Below are positions 39,911 through 48,352 of a stretch of 64,000 nt of DNA, piece after piece; within the stretch, counting starts at the first letter, position 1; each line of letters opens with the position of its first letter. The position numbers and the translations under genes are program-made. The notes under the pieces were generated by a model. That model did not search any database and was not told where the DNA came from. It was given only the letters and a program-made list of their open reading frames with translations. Source of the stretch: Tindallia sp. MSAO_Bac2 (lineage in GTDB: Bacteria; Bacillota; Clostridia; Peptostreptococcales; Tindalliaceae); the NCBI GenBank assembly GCA_003838145.1, contig QYZZ01000078.1, positions 25,587 through 89,586 on the forward strand. Reading direction: 5' to 3'.

Positions 39911-40032
39911 TGGAGCCCCTCCTTTATCGAATTAATTAATGCATCAGGGACCTCGGGCGGCTCCCTTTAGAGCATAACAGTACAATAATTATAGTATATG
40001 AAGGAAAATCTGTCAATCTGCCAATTCTTTAC

Positions 40033-40054
40033 ATACCATAGGGGGGTATGGTAT
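40033..40054. promoter_or_regulatory. CsoR operator overlapping sigmaA promoter
   Basis: ATACCATA-GGGGGG-TATGGTAT between TTTACA and TATAAT. Confidence 0.8.
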
Positions 40055-40078
40055 AATAATTCTGAAGGAGGCGAGGGA

Positions 40079-40369
40079 ATGGATTCATCTAAGAAGCCGT
40101 CAATGCACTCGGCTGAAGTTCAAAAAAGTCTGTTGCACCGACTTAACCGGGTAGAAGGCCAGGTGAGGGGCATAAAAAAACTCATTGAAAGCGAAGCCTA
40201 TTGTGATGATATTCTGCATCAGCTGGAAGCATCAAGATCAGCGCTGAAAGCAATAGAAATGGTATTGTTGGAGAGTCATATGAAACATTGTGTGATGCAC
40301 CAGCTTCAGGAGGGCGACATGTCTGTTGTGGATGAAATCCTCACAACACTGAAGAAAATCGCCAAATAA
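40079..40369 (+). CDS. csoR: Copper-sensing repressor CsoR
   Basis: RLNRVEGQVRGI, YCDDILHQL, HMKHCV. Confidence 0.92.
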   Translation: MDSSKKPSMHSAEVQKSLLHRLNRVEGQVRGIKKLIESEAYCDDILHQLEASRSALKAIEMVLLESHMKHCVMHQLQEGDMSVVDEILTTLKKIAK

Positions 40370-40423
40370 TGAAGAGGTAAAAATGAAAGACAATAACAAG
40401 AACTTGCAAAAGGAAGGGTTCTC

Positions 40424-42904
40424 ATGGAAAAAACAGAAATAAAAATAAACGGAATGAGTTGCACCAGTTGTTCAGCAGCCATCGAAAAAAAACTTTCAAA
40501 ATGGGACAGTGTTGAAACTGCCAATATTAATTTTGCGACAGAAAAGCTGCATATTTCCTATGACGAAACCAGGGTTTCTCTGGAGGAAATTGCAGAAGCC
40601 ATTGAAGACTTGGGTTATCAGCCAATGGAAACGGAAAAAGAAACAGATGACAATGAAAAGCCGGTACGAAAAACCGTAAAGGTTTCCGGCATGACTTGTA
40701 CTGCCTGCTCGGCGGCCATCGAAAAAGGGCTTAATAAAATGAAGGGCATCGAAGAAGCTACCATTAATTTTGCTGCAGAAAAGCTGACGGTTACTTTTTG
40801 GCCCGGGGAAGTCCGTATGGCTGAAATCAGCCGGAAAGTATCGGACCTGGGATATGAATTGCAGATGGATGAAAGTCCGGATGAAAAGGTGGATGAAGAT
40901 GAAGCGATGATGCACCGATCGTGGAAACGAATGATTCAGTCAGCCGTGCTATCAGGAACCATAATGCTTTTGATGATTTTCCACATGGTCCTTGGCGTTG
41001 ACATACCTTATTACCTCGTTATCGTTAATCTGCTGGCGCTGCCAAACATATTCTGGCTGGGCCGGTCCGTTCATAAAGCAAGTTTTAATGCGCTGAAAAA
41101 CGGAAGCCCCAATATGGATGTTCTGGTATCGCTGGGATCTCTTCCGCCCTATCTGATAGGGCTGAGTGCTTTCTTCTTCCCTCTGCAGGCATTCACGGAA
41201 ATGGCCAGTAGTATTATGACCTTTCACCTGATTGGTAAATACCTGGAAAGCAGGGCGAAAGGACGTGCCTCTCAGGCAATAAGAAAACTGGTTCAGATGG
41301 GGGCGAAAACAGCAAAGATTATTCTAAAGGGTGAAGAAGTGGAAGTTTCCGTTGATGAATTGCAGCCAGGAGATGTGATGGTAGTAAGGCCTGGCGAAAA
41401 AGTCCCGACGGATGGAGAAATAATAGAAGGTTCCAGCACTTTGGATGAATCTATGGCAACAGGTGAATCCATGCCGGTAAAACGGGAAAAGGGGGATCCG
41501 GTAATCGGTGCAACTATTAACAAACAAGGCCTCCTGAAGGTGAAAGTCACTAAAGTTGGAGATGAGACATTCCTGTCGCAGGTTATTCAGCTGGTAGAGG
41601 CTTGCCAGGGTTCAAAGGTTCCCATTCAGGAATTTGCCGACCGCATTACCGGATACTTTGTTCCGGCTATACTGGTGATTACGGCTCTGGTCTTTACATC
41701 AAATATACTGTTTCCTGACTTTCATCAGGGAATTCTTAAGTGGGGAGCTGAATTTCTTCCCTGGGTGAATCCGGACGCTGGGACCCTATCCATTGCCTTT
41801 GTGACAGCAACCGCCGTATTGGTTATTGCCTGCCCCTGTGCACTGGGTCTGGGAACGCCTACAGCATTAATGGTGGGAAGCGGAATGGGAGCAGAGAACG
41901 GAATACTGATCCGAAATGGAGAAGCTGTTCAGACTTTTAAAGATCTGAAAATGATTATCTTCGATAAAACCGGAACCTTAACCCATGGTAAGCCGGCAGT
42001 AACCGACACTATTGCCGAAGCCGGAGTTGATGAGCATACGTTAATGAATGTTGCCGGATCTCTTGAAAAAGGATCGGAGCATCCGCTGGCTCATGCAATA
42101 ATGGAAGAAGTCCAAAAAAAGAATATCAAGCCGGATGAGATTCAGGGATTTAATGCGGTCACAGGCTTTGGGATTGAAGGAATATTGGATGGGCGCCAGG
42201 TTTTTATGGGAAATCGAAAACTGATGGAAAAATATGGAGTGAAATATCAGCACCTGGATGAAGAAATCCGCAAATTAGAGGAAGAAGCTAAAACCGTTAT
42301 GATGGTGGCACGTGAAGATCAGCTATTAGGACTGATTGCTGTTGCGGATCCGGTGAAGGAAGATTCCTCGAGAGCTGTTAAAGAATTGCAGGAAATGGGT
42401 ATTCAGACAGCGATGGTAACAGGGGACAACCAGCGGACGGCCAATGCCATTGCGGAAAAAATCGGCATTGATTATGTGATAGCTGAAGTACTGCCTGAGG
42501 GCAAAGTGGACGAGGTGAAAAAGCTTCAAAAAGAATTTGAAACCGTAGCCATGGTTGGTGATGGGATTAATGACGCTCCGGCGCTGAAACAGGCAAATAT
42601 CGGCATAGCTATCGGAACCGGAACAGATGTTGCCATTGAAGCTGCGGATGTGACGCTGGTAAAAGGAGATCTGGGTGGTATTATTTCATCAATTCTTCTG
42701 TCGAGAGGCACATTCCGGAAGATTAAGGAAAATTATTTCTGGGCCTGGTTTTATAATGCCATTGCAATACCGGTAGCGATGATGGGTCTGCTTCATCCAA
42801 TGATTGGAGCTGCTGCCATGTCAGTCAGTTCCCTCAACGTAGTTTATAATTCGCTGCGACTTAAGAAAACAGATATTAAGCCGTCCTTTAAACAAGCGCA
42901 ATAA
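40424..42904 (+). CDS. copA: Cu(I)-translocating P1B-1 ATPase
   Basis: Two CxxC HMA domains, TGES, CPC, DKTGT, SEHPL, GDGINDAP, YN..AIP. Confidence 0.95.
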   Translation: MEKTEIKINGMSCTSCSAAIEKKLSKWDSVETANINFATEKLHISYDETRVSLEEIAEAIEDLGYQPMETEKETDDNEKPVRKTVKVSGMTCTACSAAIEKGLNKMKGIEEATINFAAEKLTVTFWPGEVRMAEISRKVSDLGYELQMDESPDEKVDEDEAMMHRSWKRMIQSAVLSGTIMLLMIFHMVLGVDIPYYLVIVNLLALPNIFWLGRSVHKASFNALKNGSPNMDVLVSLGSLPPYLIGLSAFFFPLQAFTEMASSIMTFHLIGKYLESRAKGRASQAIRKLVQMGAKTAKIILKGEEVEVSVDELQPGDVMVVRPGEKVPTDGEIIEGSSTLDESMATGESMPVKREKGDPVIGATINKQGLLKVKVTKVGDETFLSQVIQLVEACQGSKVPIQEFADRITGYFVPAILVITALVFTSNILFPDFHQGILKWGAEFLPWVNPDAGTLSIAFVTATAVLVIACPCALGLGTPTALMVGSGMGAENGILIRNGEAVQTFKDLKMIIFDKTGTLTHGKPAVTDTIAEAGVDEHTLMNVAGSLEKGSEHPLAHAIMEEVQKKNIKPDEIQGFNAVTGFGIEGILDGRQVFMGNRKLMEKYGVKYQHLDEEIRKLEEEAKTVMMVAREDQLLGLIAVADPVKEDSSRAVKELQEMGIQTAMVTGDNQRTANAIAEKIGIDYVIAEVLPEGKVDEVKKLQKEFETVAMVGDGINDAPALKQANIGIAIGTGTDVAIEAADVTLVKGDLGGIISSILLSRGTFRKIKENYFWAWFYNAIAIPVAMMGLLHPMIGAAAMSVSSLNVVYNSLRLKKTDIKPSFKQAQ

Positions 42905-42926
42905 AATCACCTGAAGGAGGATGAAA

Positions 42927-43142
42927 ATGAAAAAACGTATTAAAATTGAAGGAATGACCTGCGGACACTGCTCAGCCCGTGTGGAGAAGCAGCTTAAAAA
43001 ACTGGAAGGGGTAGAGGAAGTGGTGGTGGACCTGGAAGCTAAGAACGCAATGATTACCCTTTCGGCAGCAGTTGACAACGAAACAATAGCAGAGGCGGTT
43101 GATGATGCCGGCTATGATGTAACAGACATATCAGATGTATAG
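42927..43142 (+). CDS. copZ: Copper chaperone
   Basis: IEGMTCGHC. Confidence 0.93.
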   Translation: MKKRIKIEGMTCGHCSARVEKQLKKLEGVEEVVVDLEAKNAMITLSAAVDNETIAEAVDDAGYDVTDISDV

Positions 43143-43171
43143 AAAAAGCGGATCCGAGGATCCGCTTTTTT
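43143..43171 (+). terminator. Intrinsic terminator
   Basis: AAAAAGCGGATC/GATCCGCTTTTTT. Confidence 0.85.
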
Positions 43172-43186
43172 GATAGTGAGGTTCTT

Positions 43187-43234
43187 GTGCCCTGCGGGTA
43201 CGAGTGCCCCGTGGGTACGAGTGCCCCTTGGGTA
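43187..43234. repeat. 17-bp tandem repeat, about 2.8 copies
   Basis: GTGCCC-NNN-GGGTACGA units. Confidence 0.85.
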
Positions 43235-43243
43235 TTTGAACTG

Positions 43244-43278
43244 AATTATCCATTATCAATCATCAATTCTCAATTACA
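43244..43278. repeat. Heptamer tandem array (AATTATC-like) x5
   Basis: AATTATC CATTATC AATCATC AATTCTC AATTACA. Confidence 0.7.
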
Positions 43279-43549
43279 ACTGACGCGAAGTGTCTTTGTT
43301 CATGCTTTAAAATGATGATGCAATTATTTTGAATAGATTCAAAAATTTTGATTGATTTCTACGTGGAAATAATGTATGATGAGTTAAGGAAAAGGTTATC
43401 CTAAGCGTACATATATATCAAAACCCCTGTTTATGCGAATGCTGACTGATTTGTTTAAGGGTATATTCGATATTCTAAGCGAAATATCAGAAATTGCTAA
43501 GGTAAATCATTAAGTGTCAGTACCGCATCACGAATTTTTTTGATCAAGT

Positions 43550-43567
43550 TTGTCTTATATTTCACAA
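43550..43567. promoter_or_regulatory. Possible Rex box
   Basis: TTGTCTT-ATAT-TTCACAA vs TTGTGAA-N4-TTCACAA; right half perfect. Confidence 0.35.
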
Positions 43568-43666
43568 GCGCTGATTTGGATTAAAGATATTTAAAATCAT
43601 TAGCTAACTTGTGACTTAATAAAGAAAATAAAAAAACATTTAAAAAGGAGAAGGAGGAGTTTTTTA

Positions 43667-44635
43667 ATGAAACAACATAAGTTATTAAGTTTATTACTTG
43701 CATTACTACTTGCTCTGTCATTACTTGCTGGGTGTGGATCACCGGCAGACGAGCCAGCAGAAACAGAAGAACCAGCTGTAGAGGAAACTGTGGAAGAGCC
43801 GGCTGAAGAGCCTGAAGAAGAAGAAACGGAAGAACTGGATGAAGCGGCTGTTATATGGGATGCGACAACAGCGTATTTCGATTCCATTACCGAAGAAAAC
43901 AGTACTTGGAACATGGTGCCTTTTGCAGATGCACTGCCTATGATCGAAGACAATCCGGATGCAGTATTTATCGTTGATATGCGTGGCGCAGATGATTACG
44001 CAGAGGGTCATATCCCTGGAGCCGTTCACATCCCCTACGCAGAAATTGGAGAAAAGATGGACGTACTTCCTGCCAATCGTCAAATTATGGTTTATTGCTT
44101 TACCGGTCAAACCTCTGGCCAGGCCGTTGCAGCTATGCAGTTGATGGGCTTTAACGCAGTATCCCTGCAAGGTGGAATGAACTTTGGCTGGGCACCACTG
44201 GAGTTAGACGAAGACACCCTGGAAACAGAAGCAAATGAACTGCCTGAAGCAAACGCAGACTGGACTCCCGAACAGGAAATCCTGCTAGCTGCCATTAACG
44301 ATCATTTCACCCAGGGAACCAACCATATCGTTCGGCCGCCAGAAGTACATGACTTAATTGAAGGTAGTCCTGAAGCTATCCAAATTGTAGATATTCGTAA
44401 CCAGGAAGCTTATGATGAGGGTCATATAGAAGGTGCTGTATTGATTCCTTTCCCGGAAGTTGGAGAGCGTATGGATGAGTTTTCAACAACCAAGCCGGTT
44501 TATGTTACCTGCTTCTCAGGACAAACTGCCGGTCAAACCATCTTGAATCTTCGTCTCAACGGTATTAATGCAATGCCGATTTACCGAGGTATGAGAGGCT
44601 GGACTGGTGATGAAATGCCAGTAGTAACTGAATAA
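43667..44635 (+). CDS. Lipoprotein with two rhodanese domains
   Basis: Lipobox LLAGC, acidic linker, GHIPGA/GHIEGA, active-site loops CFTGQTS and CFSGQTA. Confidence 0.9.
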   Translation: MKQHKLLSLLLALLLALSLLAGCGSPADEPAETEEPAVEETVEEPAEEPEEEETEELDEAAVIWDATTAYFDSITEENSTWNMVPFADALPMIEDNPDAVFIVDMRGADDYAEGHIPGAVHIPYAEIGEKMDVLPANRQIMVYCFTGQTSGQAVAAMQLMGFNAVSLQGGMNFGWAPLELDEDTLETEANELPEANADWTPEQEILLAAINDHFTQGTNHIVRPPEVHDLIEGSPEAIQIVDIRNQEAYDEGHIEGAVLIPFPEVGERMDEFSTTKPVYVTCFSGQTAGQTILNLRLNGINAMPIYRGMRGWTGDEMPVVTE

Positions 44636-44678
44636 AGTAAGTATTCATTTTGTATATCCCCCTAAATTGCTTCGTTTC

Positions 44679-44705
44679 CCATCCGGTCTTATTAACCGGA
44701 TGGGA
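44679..44705. other. Intercistronic stem-loop
   Basis: CCCATCCGGT/ACCGGATGGG. Confidence 0.6.
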
Positions 44706-44750
44706 CGGAGTATTTTTACACTTAAATCAGCGGAGAAAGGAATGGAATAA

Positions 44751-45821
44751 ATGGACAAAGAGCAGATTGTAGCAATCCTGGTCCTGGTAGTTTTGAGCGT
44801 AGGCATACTCTTTGGATGTAACGCCATTGGCGAGACTGATATGGCTGACGTGACCAGCTATGAAGTAACAGCGGAAGGCTACGGAGGACCTGTTCGTCTA
44901 CTGGTGCATGTAGATGGAGAAGAAATAGCAGATATTGAAGTACTGGAACAAAATGAAACCGAAGGACTGGGAGACACGGCAATCGAAGCTATGATCGCAA
45001 AAATTATTGAAAACCAGTCTGTGGATGTGGATGTGCACTCCGGTGCTACCGTTTCTTCCAAGGCAGTAATTGAAGCAGTAAAGAGTGCGCTGGAGGAAGC
45101 CGGTATATCTCTTGGAGATGCTGTAGCAGGAACGGATGAAGCCGATGAAGAATCAGCCCCGGTTGAATATGAAGCAGAAGGTACTTTGGCTATTGCATCC
45201 GGTTATGGTGGAGACGTTGTACTGGACGTCATCATGGACGGTGATGAAATAGTTGATATTAAGGTGCTGGATCAAAGCGAGACTCCAAATCTTGGAGATG
45301 TAGCCATTGATGCTATGATCGCAAAAATACTTAGTGCCCAGAGTCCGGATGTAGACGTGGAATCCGGAGCCACAGCTTCTTCAGAGGCTGTTATGAAAGC
45401 AGTAGCAGAAGCTACCGGACAAAACGTAGCAGAAAGGGAAGCGCCTGAAGATCCTGCGGCACAATATGACCTGGAAACTTATGAACCGGAAGGCATTATG
45501 GTATCGGGAAAAGGATTCCAGGATCGTTACGACATTTATTTGGATGTCATATTTGATGGAAATGAAATTACAGAAATTCGTGTCATCGAACATGGAGAAA
45601 CCAAAGGCTTTGGTGATGGTGCGCTTAGGGCTGTCCCTGAGAGAATTATTAACCAGCAAAGTGCTGAGGTAGATGTACAAACCGGTGCTACCTGGACATC
45701 AAATTCTACCATGGAACTGGTCCGACAGGCCGTTGAAGAAGCAGGAATTGAACTGACAGAACGTGAAGCTGCAGAAGCGGATGAGCCAGCTCCTGCTGCG
45801 GCACCCAGCGCTGGCGGCTGA
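44751..45821 (+). CDS. Membrane-anchored protein with three FMN-binding (flavinylation) domains
   Basis: Three repeats ending VHSGATVSS, VESGATASS, VQTGATWTS; GYGG and ET.GLG motifs. Confidence 0.9.
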   Translation: MDKEQIVAILVLVVLSVGILFGCNAIGETDMADVTSYEVTAEGYGGPVRLLVHVDGEEIADIEVLEQNETEGLGDTAIEAMIAKIIENQSVDVDVHSGATVSSKAVIEAVKSALEEAGISLGDAVAGTDEADEESAPVEYEAEGTLAIASGYGGDVVLDVIMDGDEIVDIKVLDQSETPNLGDVAIDAMIAKILSAQSPDVDVESGATASSEAVMKAVAEATGQNVAEREAPEDPAAQYDLETYEPEGIMVSGKGFQDRYDIYLDVIFDGNEITEIRVIEHGETKGFGDGALRAVPERIINQQSAEVDVQTGATWTSNSTMELVRQAVEEAGIELTEREAAEADEPAPAAAPSAGG

Positions 45822-45947
45822 GGTTAGTAAATTGATATCTGCGGGACGCAGATAAATTAAGTTGATTTATTTAGATATAAGATTTGACTCAGGATGTAAT
45901 ATATCCTTTAAGGAATCGAATATATTCTTGGAAAAAGGAGGACTATC

Positions 45948-46616
45948 ATGAACAAGGAAGCAAAAAACAACAGTGAAAACAAAAGCCTGAGCCGTAAAGA
46001 TTTTTTAAAGGGAATGGGAACCACTTTGGCAGGTGTTACGCTGTTTGGAGGAATGGGAACAGTCCTGGCCTCATTCAACGAAGCAGAAGCTGCGGAAAAG
46101 TCTGGCATGGAGCATCCGCTTCCCTATAAAAGAATCGATCCTGACAAAGCTGCCGAGAGAGCTTACAAATACTACAAAGAAAAAGGTGGCTGAGGCGTCG
46201 GTACAGCCGAAGGTCTTTTCGGCTACTTAGCAGCAGAAGCAGGATACCCCTACAACCAAATTCCAACGACCATGTACCGTTCCTTTGCAGGAGGCTTTGC
46301 GCTTGAAGCTTCTTTGTGTGGAACTCTGGCCGTTGCATCCGGTTTTATCGGATTATTTACAGTAGACAAGCAAAACCAACTTGTAAAAGAACTGTTTGAC
46401 TGGTACAAACAAGCAGAACTGCCTATATACAACCCGGACTTTCCTGACCATGCAGTAACGGTTGCAGAATCAACTATGTGCTATGACTCAGTTTCTAAGT
46501 TTATTCGGAAAGAAGACGTAGCGTTTCAGTCTCCTGAACGATCCAGTCGTTGCGCCGGGGTTGCCGCTGAAGTTGTGAGGACTACTGCAAAAATCCTTAA
46601 CCGTGAGTTTGCTTAA
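45948..46616 (+). CDS. Tat-signal C-GCAxxG-C-C family selenoprotein (split-Soret cytochrome-like), Sec82, 222 aa
   Basis: Track ORFs 45948-46193 and 46272-46616 share a frame; TGA 46191-46193 in KGG-U-GVGTAEG; open frame after; SLCG, TMCY, SRCAG; SRKDFLK signal. Confidence 0.85.
46205..46224 (+). promoter_or_regulatory. Putative bacterial SECIS hairpin
   Basis: AGCCGAAG-GTCT-TTTCGGCT starting 12 nt after TGA; G first in loop. Confidence 0.7.
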
Positions 46617-46649
46617 ATAATAATCGTTTTTAAAAATGAAGGTTAATAG

Positions 46650-46700
46650 AGAACCGCCCAAAACTATCGTTGAATTATAGAAGCTTTGGGCGGTTTTCTT
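46650..46700 (+). terminator. Intrinsic terminator
   Basis: AACCGCCCAAA/TTTGGGCGGTT followed by TTCTTT. Confidence 0.65.
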
Positions 46701-46774
46701 TGAAATACATAGTATGCGGAAAGAGAGTATTATATTCTAATGTTTGTTAATGATCAAAATGAGGGGATGAGTGG

Positions 46775-48352
46775 ATGGATAGCCGCATCCGTTTTCGGAA
46801 TTCGCTTCGGTTTAAAATAAGTTTAGTGTCCTTTGCGGTGGTGATCCTCATCATGGCTGTAATGTTATTCCGGTCCCACCGTGAAAGACTGGAACTGATT
46901 CGTATGCAGGAAGAGGTACTGAATGAACTTGCTGTATCCACCATAGATCGCCGGTTTAAAGTAAGCTATGAAATTCTGGAGACAGGACTGACTCAGGTGC
47001 TTGCAAATCCAGCCATCGCAGAAGCTTTTTACCAGAGAGACAGAGAAAGTCTTGAAAAACTTGTAATGCCATCCTTCGAAAGGCTTGAAGCAGTAGGCGT
47101 GTGTCGATTTCATTTTCATCTGCCTGATCAGACAACTTTTCTCAGGGTACATGACCCGGAAGATTACGGAGATGACCTTAGTACTTTCAGGGAAATAGTT
47201 GTCAGTATTAATGAAGATCCTCAGCGGAAGCCCATCAAAGGCATTGAAAAAGGAGAGGGAGGCACCTCTCTTCGTTATATATCGGCTGTGTATCACGGTG
47301 GGGAATACGCGGGGACGGTGGAACTGGGAATGTGCCTTGGGCCAAGAATCTTAGGCATTTTTCAAAATGTAAGTGGTGGGGACTGGTTTTTAATGCAGTT
47401 CAATGAATGGGGAGCCCGGAGAATTCATGGTACGGATTCATCCCCCTTTCCCATTAGCCTTAACGAAGAGCAACTTCTATATTTAGGCAATGGGCGGGTG
47501 TTGACAGAAACAGATCCGCCTTATGTTATTCAGCGGGTTCCTATAGCTGACTTTAAGGGTGATTATAATTACTACCTGAAAAGAATCTTCGACAACAGTG
47601 AACTGATTGGCCTGCAGCAACAGTACACAAGAGACAGTTTGATGTTTGGATTTTCCATGGCAATTGCCGGATCCATAGCTTTGTGGGCTCTTTTGCGCAG
47701 GCTATTGCAGCCGCTCCTATATCTGGAACAAAAAGTTAGACGCTTCGAGGCGGGAACCCTGGATGAAAGCATAGAAGTTACCTCAAAGGATGAAATAGCA
47801 TACCTGGCACGCGCTATGGAAAAAATGAGACAGTCAATTCATCGACGGGAAGAAAGGCTAAAGCGCATGAGCTTTCAGGATCAGTTAACGGGCATTCACA
47901 ATCGGCATTATTTTGATCAGATGATTAACGAAATGGAAGAAAAAAAGGTTTATCCTATTTCCATCATTATCGCGGATGTGGATAATCTGAAGTTTATTAA
48001 CGATAGGATTGGCCATGCGGAAGGCGACCGTCATATTGCTGACAGTGCAAAAGTACTGAAACGGGCAATGCGGCAGTCGGATTTGGTCTGCCGCATTGGT
48101 GGAGATGAATTTGCGGTTTTGCTTCCGGGCACCTGTGAAGAGGCTGTGATAAGGATCATAGAACGTATTCAGCAAGAGATTGACCTATATAATGAAGCAA
48201 TAGAAAATAATCACAGGAAAATGGAAATATCCCTGGGATTTGCAACCTGCTATGATGATAATGAATCTTTGGAAACCATGATGCAAACTGCAGATAAGAA
48301 CATGTACCGCAACAAAATGAAACGAAAAAAGGAAAAAGCGAGCAGTTTTTAA
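46775..48352 (+). CDS. Diguanylate cyclase (Cache-like sensor, HAMP, GGDEF)
   Basis: Two TM, HAMP, DQLTG, RQSD I-site, RIGGDEF. Confidence 0.92.
   Translation: MDSRIRFRNSLRFKISLVSFAVVILIMAVMLFRSHRERLELIRMQEEVLNELAVSTIDRRFKVSYEILETGLTQVLANPAIAEAFYQRDRESLEKLVMPSFERLEAVGVCRFHFHLPDQTTFLRVHDPEDYGDDLSTFREIVVSINEDPQRKPIKGIEKGEGGTSLRYISAVYHGGEYAGTVELGMCLGPRILGIFQNVSGGDWFLMQFNEWGARRIHGTDSSPFPISLNEEQLLYLGNGRVLTETDPPYVIQRVPIADFKGDYNYYLKRIFDNSELIGLQQQYTRDSLMFGFSMAIAGSIALWALLRRLLQPLLYLEQKVRRFEAGTLDESIEVTSKDEIAYLARAMEKMRQSIHRREERLKRMSFQDQLTGIHNRHYFDQMINEMEEKKVYPISIIIADVDNLKFINDRIGHAEGDRHIADSAKVLKRAMRQSDLVCRIGGDEFAVLLPGTCEEAVIRIIERIQQEIDLYNEAIENNHRKMEISLGFATCYDDNESLETMMQTADKNMYRNKMKRKKEKASSF

Follow-up and report, generated by a model that had tools for sequence, protein, structure and literature searches.

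What do three consecutive genes for exported proteins do in the genome of Tindallia sp. MSAO_Bac2, and do they do it together? The genes, here called g1, g2 and g3, lie on the plus strand at 43667–46616 of the window, a 64,000-nucleotide (nt) stretch of contig QYZZ01000078.1 (positions 25,587 to 89,586; assembly GCA_003838145.1). Strong intrinsic terminators stand on either side, and the motifs, hairpins and terminators described below are on the same strand. The three products are a rhodanese lipoprotein, a membrane-anchored protein with three flavin mononucleotide (FMN)-binding domains, and a predicted selenocysteine (Sec)-containing protein with a twin-arginine translocation (Tat)-type signal. 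A first-pass annotation of the window had described three co-oriented genes for exported proteins between terminators, and had proposed that they form a surface electron relay acting on sulfur or selenium compounds. Every part of that anatomy is present in the sequence: the lipobox and both catalytic cysteines of g1, the three flavinylation motifs of g2, and the Tat-type signal, Pfam family match and in-frame TGA of g3. The ApbE, Tat and Sec-insertion genes that it had proposed to look for are present in the genome as well. Comparison with related loci further suggests that g2 very likely partners g3 in redox chemistry and that g1 is probably transcribed largely by itself.

The most distinctive of the three genes is g3 (45948–46616, 222 codons), whose codon 82 is a UGA (46191–46193) in frame with the downstream open reading frame (ORF). 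TGA stands at this codon in 76 of 76 homologues that are split in the same way (80 genome loci carry g3 homologues), and nine or ten others are continuous, with Cys. Cys also fills this column in P0044, P0048, P0051, P0054, P0065, the structure 1H21 in the Protein Data Bank (PDB) and the fusion proteins described below; metagenome gene calls that show W here are translated only under TGA=W. A hairpin of the selenocysteine insertion sequence (SECIS) type, with a 7-bp stem and a GGUC loop, follows 12 nt after the UGA (46206–46223, +16 to +33). In an RNAalifold consensus of 75 distinct sequences its pairs are 87–100% canonical and its loop is GGUY. Compensatory double changes occur at three pairs (CG>UA, AU>GC and GC>UA/AU), and one paired change, GAA/TTC to GAG/CTC, costs a Phe-to-Leu substitution in the protein; Cys-form homologues have fewer pairs at these positions. 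The genes for tRNA-Sec, SelB, SelA and SelD lie together on contig C34 at about 60–64.7 kb, and selD itself carries a TGA (Sec) codon. Taken together, these comparisons argue that g3 is a true selenoprotein. The C_GCAxxG_C_C family has already been catalogued as a predicted selenoprotein family (PMC9312934), and the NCBIfam entry TIGR01909 is named '(seleno)protein'.

Two other readings of the TGA were considered and rejected. A real stop between two genes does not agree with a second ORF that lacks a ribosome-binding site, with TGA in 76 of 76 homologues, with the SECIS hairpin or with the continuous Cys forms. Genome-wide recoding of TGA was set aside because g2 ends in TGA, which is thus an ordinary stop elsewhere in the genome. 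A second Sec-containing paralogue of g3 (G000:C24:182-997) shares 42% identity with it and has its TGA at the same place; its neighbourhood is lost, since the contig is only 1.1 kb long.

We compared g3 with family profiles and structures. It passes the Pfam threshold for C_GCAxxG_C_C (PF09719; 36.3 bits, cut-off 27) and falls below that of TIGR01909 (20.2 bits, cut-off 47.4), which places it by sequence in a divergent, Tat-exported subfamily. Its best NCBIfam match is NF047622, split-Soret cytochrome c, at E 9e-36 over profile positions 2–217 of 275, with 124 bits against a cut-off of 400. The sole PDB relative is 1H21, the title of which announces 'a novel iron centre'; it is matched by sequence over about 170 residues (phmmer, E 3e-23) and by fold in Foldseek (E 9e-10, TM score 0.67, root-mean-square deviation 2.8 over 171 columns), with no other fold match below E 1. 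Four positions, U/C82, C124, C178 and C202, are invariant in 86 g3 homologues and in alignments A1 and A2, and all four are Cys in 1H21. The protein ends where the dihaem domain of the cytochrome starts. Because it stops at profile position 217 of 275 and lacks CxxCH, g3 is not a cytochrome, and the true cytochrome forms (P0054, P0071) run on with two CxxCH motifs. By these alignments, g3 is homologous to the N-terminal iron-centre domain of split-Soret cytochrome c but lacks haem, and Sec replaces the first of four invariant cysteines; the first-pass annotation had not recognised this relationship. Sec82 would be a ligand of the iron centre, or lie next to it, if the four cysteines of 1H21 hold that centre. 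Judged by this locus, the host is a soda-lake relative of Anoxynatronum, with 77–79% identity for g3. The genes flanking P0071, a haem-bearing Sec form, and P0065 were uninformative. At L118 (5740-6498, and likewise at L119 and L120) a split-Soret cytochrome with both CxxCH motifs is called as two ORFs of 75 and 165 amino acids (aa), and since it is called in two pieces it probably also contains Sec.

The export signal of g3 reads S-R-K-D-F-L-K, against a Tat consensus of S/T-R-R-x-F-L-K. R16 is invariant across the 86 homologues, and position 17 is K in 72, R in 9 and another residue in 5. Genes for TatA or TatC lie within 5 kb of 49 of the 86 homologues, and the window's genome has a TatC and three TatA genes on contig C121. 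Given the invariant R16 and the nearby translocase genes, the RK signal is very probably a working Tat signal served by a dedicated translocase. PhoD and EfeB of Bacillus are Tat substrates with a dedicated translocase. The C121 locus (G000:C121:44326-47943, L002) holds the only TatC of the genome, the three TatA genes, an ORF for a TorD/DmsD-like chaperone and a second twin-arginine protein (NRRNFLK), which at a guess is a molybdoenzyme subunit.

The middle gene, g2 (44751–45821), encodes 356 aa with an N-terminal hydrophobic anchor and three FMN_bind domains (PF04205, three stretches, E 2.8e-50). Three flavinylation motifs of the form Dxx[S/T]GAT are present, one in each domain: DVHSGAT with T100 (45030-45050), DVESGAT with T208 (45354-45374) and DVQTGAT with T314 (45672-45692). 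The hydrophobic segment ends in LFGC, and because orthologues lack this Cys, 'membrane-anchored' is the safer description. Domain by domain, g2 is orthologous to proteins of Anoxynatronum and of soda-lake metagenome-assembled genomes (MAGs); a tree of FMN_bind domains had too few columns to reveal a dedicated partner subfamily. With three domains, three motifs and an extracytosolic N-terminal anchor, g2 falls by sequence in the multi-flavinylated class, its covalent FMN being predicted. The genome has one ApbE (G000:C58:50910-51953, 299.7 bits), itself with an N-terminal anchor. Potassium and phosphate transport genes surround it, and no electron-input candidate was found there.

On the same contig (G000:C58:31321-35168) lies a gene for a 357-aa decahaem cytochrome c with 10 CxxCH motifs, adjoined by ResB/ResC-like maturation genes and a two-component system. 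The locus also holds an FMN_bind lipoprotein with a VSGATGSS motif and is thus a cytochrome/flavin hybrid locus in a Clostridium-like anaerobe. We had considered that flavins substitute for haems because the host cannot make c-type cytochromes; the decahaem cytochrome and its ResB/ResC genes led us to reject this.

The evidence that g2 and g3 work together comes from gene order and gene fusion. Of the 86 g3 homologues, 22 have an FMN_bind gene within 5 kb; they belong to many separate clades, with at least 14 changes of state on the tree. The window's 2.48-Mb genome has only 7 FMN_bind ORFs, and a HMMER search of 1.84 billion representatives found only 796 relatives. Clusters in Tissierellia place ApbE, TatA and TatC alongside the g3 homologue and the FMN_bind gene. 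Among the 796 relatives are several single-chain fusions, in which a Tat signal is followed by the iron-centre domain (SscN) in its Cys form and, at the C-terminus, by FMN_bind with its flavinylation motif intact (P0077, P0078, P0080, P0082, P0085). At least 137 SscN-FMN_bind fusion loci are found in Clostridia of the gut and rumen, one of them in Faecalibacterium gallinarum JCM 17207, and in these proteins FMN_bind takes the C-terminal position held by the two CxxCH haems of split-Soret cytochromes. The iron-centre domain is therefore found carrying two haems in the Desulfovibrio type, fused to a flavin domain in gut Clostridia, and accompanied by a separate flavinylated protein in the window and its relatives. 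We regard these three forms as strong evidence that g2 would hand electrons to g3; recurrent adjacency and fusion of the two families make g2 and g3 very likely redox partners.

The same evidence bears on the view that three unrelated exported proteins merely lie side by side with no joint function. Terminator-like hairpins between g1 and g2 agree with it, as do flanking genes in the window with unrelated roles (copper efflux, a GGDEF protein) and the 16 of 86 g3 homologues that have none of the recurrent neighbours. It has to contend with the fusion proteins, with adjacency repeated across the tree and with a g1-g2-g3 trio that stays together in three genomes (the window, L030 and L032) with different flanks, and we judge it very improbable.

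Among the fusion loci examined (L124-L203), the Tat-SscN(Cys)-FMN_bind arrangement is common in Christensenellales, Oscillospiraceae and Faecalibacterium of the rumen and gut, often with an adjoining TatC gene. A separate recurrent companion is a lipoprotein that has no annotation and matches no Pfam or NCBIfam model; it is about 350-400 aa long and contains an internal repeat. Tissierellia and one deep-branching Bacillota MAG carry it next to ApbE and the SscN/FMN_bind pair (L049 2588-5106; L051 3918-5051; L057 2431-3624; L072 7660-8757; L070 5719-6768). Possible roles are those of an additional subunit or of a flavinylation target that has been overlooked.

The first gene, g1 (43667–44635), encodes 322 aa with a lipobox (LLAG-C23), an acidic linker and two rhodanese domains (PF00581, two stretches, E 1.6e-30), each with a catalytic loop (C144 in CFTGQTSG and C282 in CFSGQTAG). 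Its best NCBIfam matches are GlpE/PspE-type thiosulfate sulfurtransferases; every one is below its cut-off, and no equivalog cut-off is reached. A weak match (E 2.6e-4) links it to ExtH of the Geobacter selenite/tellurite cluster. In four related soda-lake genomes, that of the window and those of L030, L032 and L108, the rhodanese gene adjoins a multi-FMN gene, and the flanking genes differ from one genome to the next. An orthologue search found mostly solitary copies and added only the L108 pair, whose remaining neighbours were uninformative. The conservation of neighbourhood that the first-pass annotation had anticipated thus holds for g2 and g3, which are syntenic far beyond this genome and even fused, but fails to extend to the rhodanese beyond those four genomes.

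Transcription signals separate g1 in a similar way. The flanking terminators reported earlier are both present, but between them stands a third terminator-like hairpin with a U-run that the earlier description lacked (44670–44717, fold -34 kcal/mol, z -3.4). Canonical terminators occupy the same place, 3' of the rhodanese gene, in L030, L032 and L108. A terminator thus ends the rhodanese gene in the window and in each of the three relatives compared. A simple operon of all three genes is therefore improbable, and the proposal of a single three-gene module is weakened where the rhodanese is concerned. The hairpin is possibly a partial terminator or attenuator, and g1 is probably transcribed largely by itself. 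The cluster closes with an intrinsic terminator at 46650–46701 (hairpin -27.7 kcal/mol, z -4.9), followed by UUUUCUUU. Terminators were assigned from folding; a consensus promoter/terminator scan of the region, which gave a count no higher than the shuffled expectation, was not used for them. A search of 43000-47000 against Rfam at E up to 1 gave only chance matches on terminator hairpins and no riboswitch or known leader.

The genes beside other g3 homologues suggest what the pair may act on. About 20 of the 86 homologues adjoin genes for a YedE/FdhT-like permease, a TusA-like protein and a LysR regulator, with at least 11 changes on the tree. The permease is encoded as two half-genes (PF04143) with the TusA-like gene (PF01206) between them, and the LysR gene is divergent. 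Selen_YedE_FdhT is the best model for the permease halves (110-169 bits, against 79-98 for TsuA, and below curated cut-offs); for the LysR it is LysR_Sec_metab (185-240 bits, cut-off 250, next best about 148). YedE, YedF and LysR_Se have been linked to selenium use (Lin et al. 2015, PMC5322559). Locus L082 runs on one strand as SscN-TatA-TatC-FMN_bind-HMA/DsbD_2/cupredoxin-TusA-YedE-TusA-YedE, and FdhD and MoaA genes adjoin the L026 copy. The idea of a surface relay gains comparative support from the g2-g3 pairing, and its sulfur or selenium link gains it from the YedE/TusA/LysR neighbours in other lineages. At L082 (10343-11686), L045 (8937-10280) and five further loci, a fusion of HMA, DsbD_2 transmembrane and cupredoxin-like domains lies between the FMN_bind and TusA/YedE genes; it is a candidate transmembrane carrier of electrons or of chalcogen or metal.

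These neighbours also prompt an explanation in terms of selenium acquisition and homeostasis. Here the flavin-fed Sec protein would reduce or bind extracellular selenium (selenite, Se(0) or selenotrisulfide) at the cell surface. This would supply a YedE/FdhT-type permease and carriers of the TusA/YedF type, which pass selenium to SelD, with the rhodanese carrying perselenide. The selenium-annotated best models, the work of Lin et al. 2015 on these families, the FdhD and MoaA genes beside the L026 copy, and hosts that are selenoprotein-rich amino-acid fermenters all agree with such a role, as do the weak ExtH match of g1 and the selenite reduction by MccSep described below. Every neighbour score is nevertheless below its curated cut-off, the window's genome has no clear YedE/TusA set, and a chain of three or four flavins looks oversized for a trace-element task. 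The scheme is also circular, in that a selenoprotein would be required to obtain selenium. Adjacency may moreover be regulatory: the Sec/Cys paralogue pairs in L057 and L060 fit a selenium-responsive switch. We consider selenium acquisition unlikely overall, though it deserves a place directly after the reading that follows.

We favour, with about even confidence, an extracytoplasmic redox pair of g2 and g3 acting on sulfane sulfur or selenium that the rhodanese would carry. ApbE would attach FMN covalently to the three threonines of membrane-anchored g2, and g3 would fold with its cofactor in the cytoplasm before export by Tat. By homology with split-Soret cytochrome c, this cofactor is most likely an iron-sulfur centre on the four invariant Cys positions, with Sec82 as the first. 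A membrane donor would supply electrons that the flavins of g2 relay to the Sec/Cys centre of g3; the selenol would attack a chalcogen-chalcogen bond, and the adduct would then be reduced. The most likely substrates would be sulfane sulfur (polysulfide or a thiosulfate-derived persulfide) or selenium species, which g1 may capture and pass onward. A Sec-dependent reductase of this kind is favoured because of the rhodanese, the YedE/TusA/LysR neighbours and the precedent of MccSep.

MccSep is a periplasmic pentahaem selenoprotein polysulfide reductase of Geobacter sulfurreducens that reduces polysulfide and selenite (Sci Adv, August 2026, PMC13510729), and its Sec works beside metal-ligating Cys (PMC13510729). 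Like MccSep, g3 is predicted to be extracytoplasmic, with Sec beside the cysteines of a redox metal centre and covalently bound cofactors feeding it. The two share no relationship in sequence or fold, and MccSep uses haems where g2-g3 would use flavins and a Cys4-type centre. Unlike MccSep and Psr, none of g1 to g3 carries CxxCH, and the cluster has no molybdopterin domain; the resemblance is functional only, and the activity of g3 is putative.

Several points weigh against the sulfane sulfur or selenium pair. The predicted iron-sulfur cofactor of g3 is extrapolated from the [2Fe-2S]-type centre that the four cysteines of 1H21 reportedly hold (Abreu et al. 2003). Linkage of the rhodanese is restricted to the four related soda-lake genomes, the L108 rhodanese/multi-FMN pair stands there without g3, and transcription of g1, given the terminators here and in three relatives, is at best attenuated into g2-g3. 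The cluster encodes no membrane electron-input protein. The window's genome has no clear YedE/TusA set, as noted above, and the LysR/YedE/TusA context could reflect selenium-dependent regulation of a selenoprotein gene, not its substrate. Finally, the fused SscN-FMN_bind genes of gut Clostridia have Tat genes as their sole recurrent neighbours and no sulfur or selenium genes beside them, so the pair may serve other acceptors.

This last point agrees with another reading, in which g2 and g3 are a general-purpose electron-transfer pair outside the cytoplasm whose partner is not a chalcogen. Candidate partners are Fe(III) or humics, quinones or flavin shuttles, oxygen, peroxide and the disulfides of proteins; the rhodanese and the sulfur and selenium genes would then be mechanistically unconnected neighbours. 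Mutants in the split-Soret cytochrome of D. alaskensis have no phenotype, multi-flavinylated proteins have been proposed as general long-range electron carriers (PMC8238504), and the genome has other parts resembling extracellular electron transfer (EET), namely the decahaem cytochrome with its FMN_bind lipoprotein. Such a pair would leave unexplained why rhodanese, TusA and YedE-like genes recur in separate lineages and why Sec is retained in 76 of 86 homologues. We think it improbable and place it after selenium acquisition.

Other described systems resemble parts of the locus. The split-Soret cytochrome c of Desulfovibrio desulfuricans ATCC 27774 (1H21, NF047622) shares with g3 a homologous N-terminal domain, the four conserved Cys positions, a Tat-type signal and a periplasmic or extracytoplasmic location. 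It differs from g3, which has no dihaem domain, has Sec in place of the first Cys and scores 124 against 400 bits; the electron carrier of g3 would be a separate flavinylated protein or, in gut Clostridia, a fused FMN_bind domain. The likeness of g2 is to PplA of Listeria EET and to other multi-flavinylated proteins (Meheust et al. 2021, PMC8238504), with which it shares several motif-bearing FMN_bind domains, an extracytoplasmic anchor, an ApbE in the genome and a Gram-positive host. Unlike the Listeria EET locus (Ndh2, EetA, EetB, FmnB, PplA), the cluster has no membrane partner of the EetA, EetB or Ndh2 type, and g2 has a C_GCAxxG_C_C selenoprotein as its neighbour, a pairing that Meheust et al. 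2021 do not mention. The families of the YedE/YedF/LysR_Se genes (Lin et al. 2015, PMC5322559) and of Campylobacter FdhT/FdhU are those found beside the approximately 20 g3 homologues; none is in the window's own cluster, and the scores are below curated cut-offs.

The Sud/Psr system of Wolinella succinogenes places an exported rhodanese-type protein next to a polysulfide-reducing extracytoplasmic chain. ExtH is likewise of rhodanese type and belongs to the Geobacter ExtHIJKL cluster implicated in selenite and tellurite reduction (PMC5877670). Like these, g1 is an exported rhodanese-type protein adjoining a predicted extracytoplasmic electron-transfer chain. Unlike them, the cluster has no molybdopterin subunit, porin or cytochrome, and g1 is a Gram-positive tandem rhodanese lipoprotein.

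The first-pass annotation knew of no described system with this combination. In part this was too broad, since the selenoprotein family was already catalogued and multi-flavin proteins are known. What is new is the pairing, the fusion form and the sulfur/selenium neighbourhood, for none of which a description was found in the literature searched. The main text of Meheust et al. 2021 (PMC8238504) contains no GCAxxG, PF09719, Soret or rhodanese; the portion of its supplement consulted has PF00581 rows that are incidental only, and no flavin/C_GCAxxG_C_C pairing. A 2024 follow-up to that study mentions neither the C_GCAxxG_C_C family nor its pairing with FMN_bind proteins, and Lin et al. 2015 (PMC5322559) does not report a Tat-exported C_GCAxxG_C_C/FMN_bind partner.

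More tentatively, and with clearly less confidence than for the pair in the window, haem-less split-Soret-type Tat proteins may be the catalytic subunit of an unrecognised haem-free, molybdenum-free reductase in Gram-positive anaerobes. Its electrons would come from covalent flavins, and S-S, S-Se or Se-O bonds would be split extracellularly at an iron-sulfur-type centre of three Cys and one Sec (Cys3/Sec). Such an enzyme would do with flavins what the multihaem MccSep does with haems. Soda-lake anaerobes would use it to reduce polysulfide or thiosulfate, and selenoprotein-rich fermenters to capture selenium. Across the haem, fused-flavin and separate-flavin forms the domain is constant and the electron-carrying cofactor interchangeable. 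If this is true, the multi-flavinylated proteins of Gram-positive bacteria, for which we know of no function at present, gain a defined terminal partner. The iron-centre domain of split-Soret cytochrome c, whose structure dates from 2003 and whose function has to our knowledge never been assigned, would gain a testable one. Bacteria without classical molybdenum or cytochrome systems would have a candidate surface enzyme for reducing sulfur or selenium. Among them are, for the fused Cys form, many Clostridia of gut and rumen and, for the Sec form, amino-acid fermenters that depend on selenium. Cultured hosts make the idea testable: Anoxynatronum sibiricum (Z-7981) and A. buryatiense (Su22), both of which have the g2-g3 pair, as well as Alkaliphilus spp., Sedimentibacter spp. 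and Faecalibacterium gallinarum.

The cluster is flanked downstream by a GGDEF gene and serine dehydratase genes, and upstream by copper-efflux genes. Immediately upstream (39998-43142) lie genes for a csoR-like repressor, a CopA-type P1B ATPase with two HMA domains and a CopZ-like chaperone, a copper-efflux unit with its own terminator (43143–43171, an 11-bp G+C-rich hairpin followed by a U-run). Directly 3' of that terminator, a very stable nested palindrome (43172-43250, z -9.2) is built of 17-nt units that include GGGTACGAGTGCCCC. Copies of these units are also present on contigs C15, C18 and C90 of this genome, and they look like a small family of repeats resembling repetitive extragenic palindromes (REP-like).

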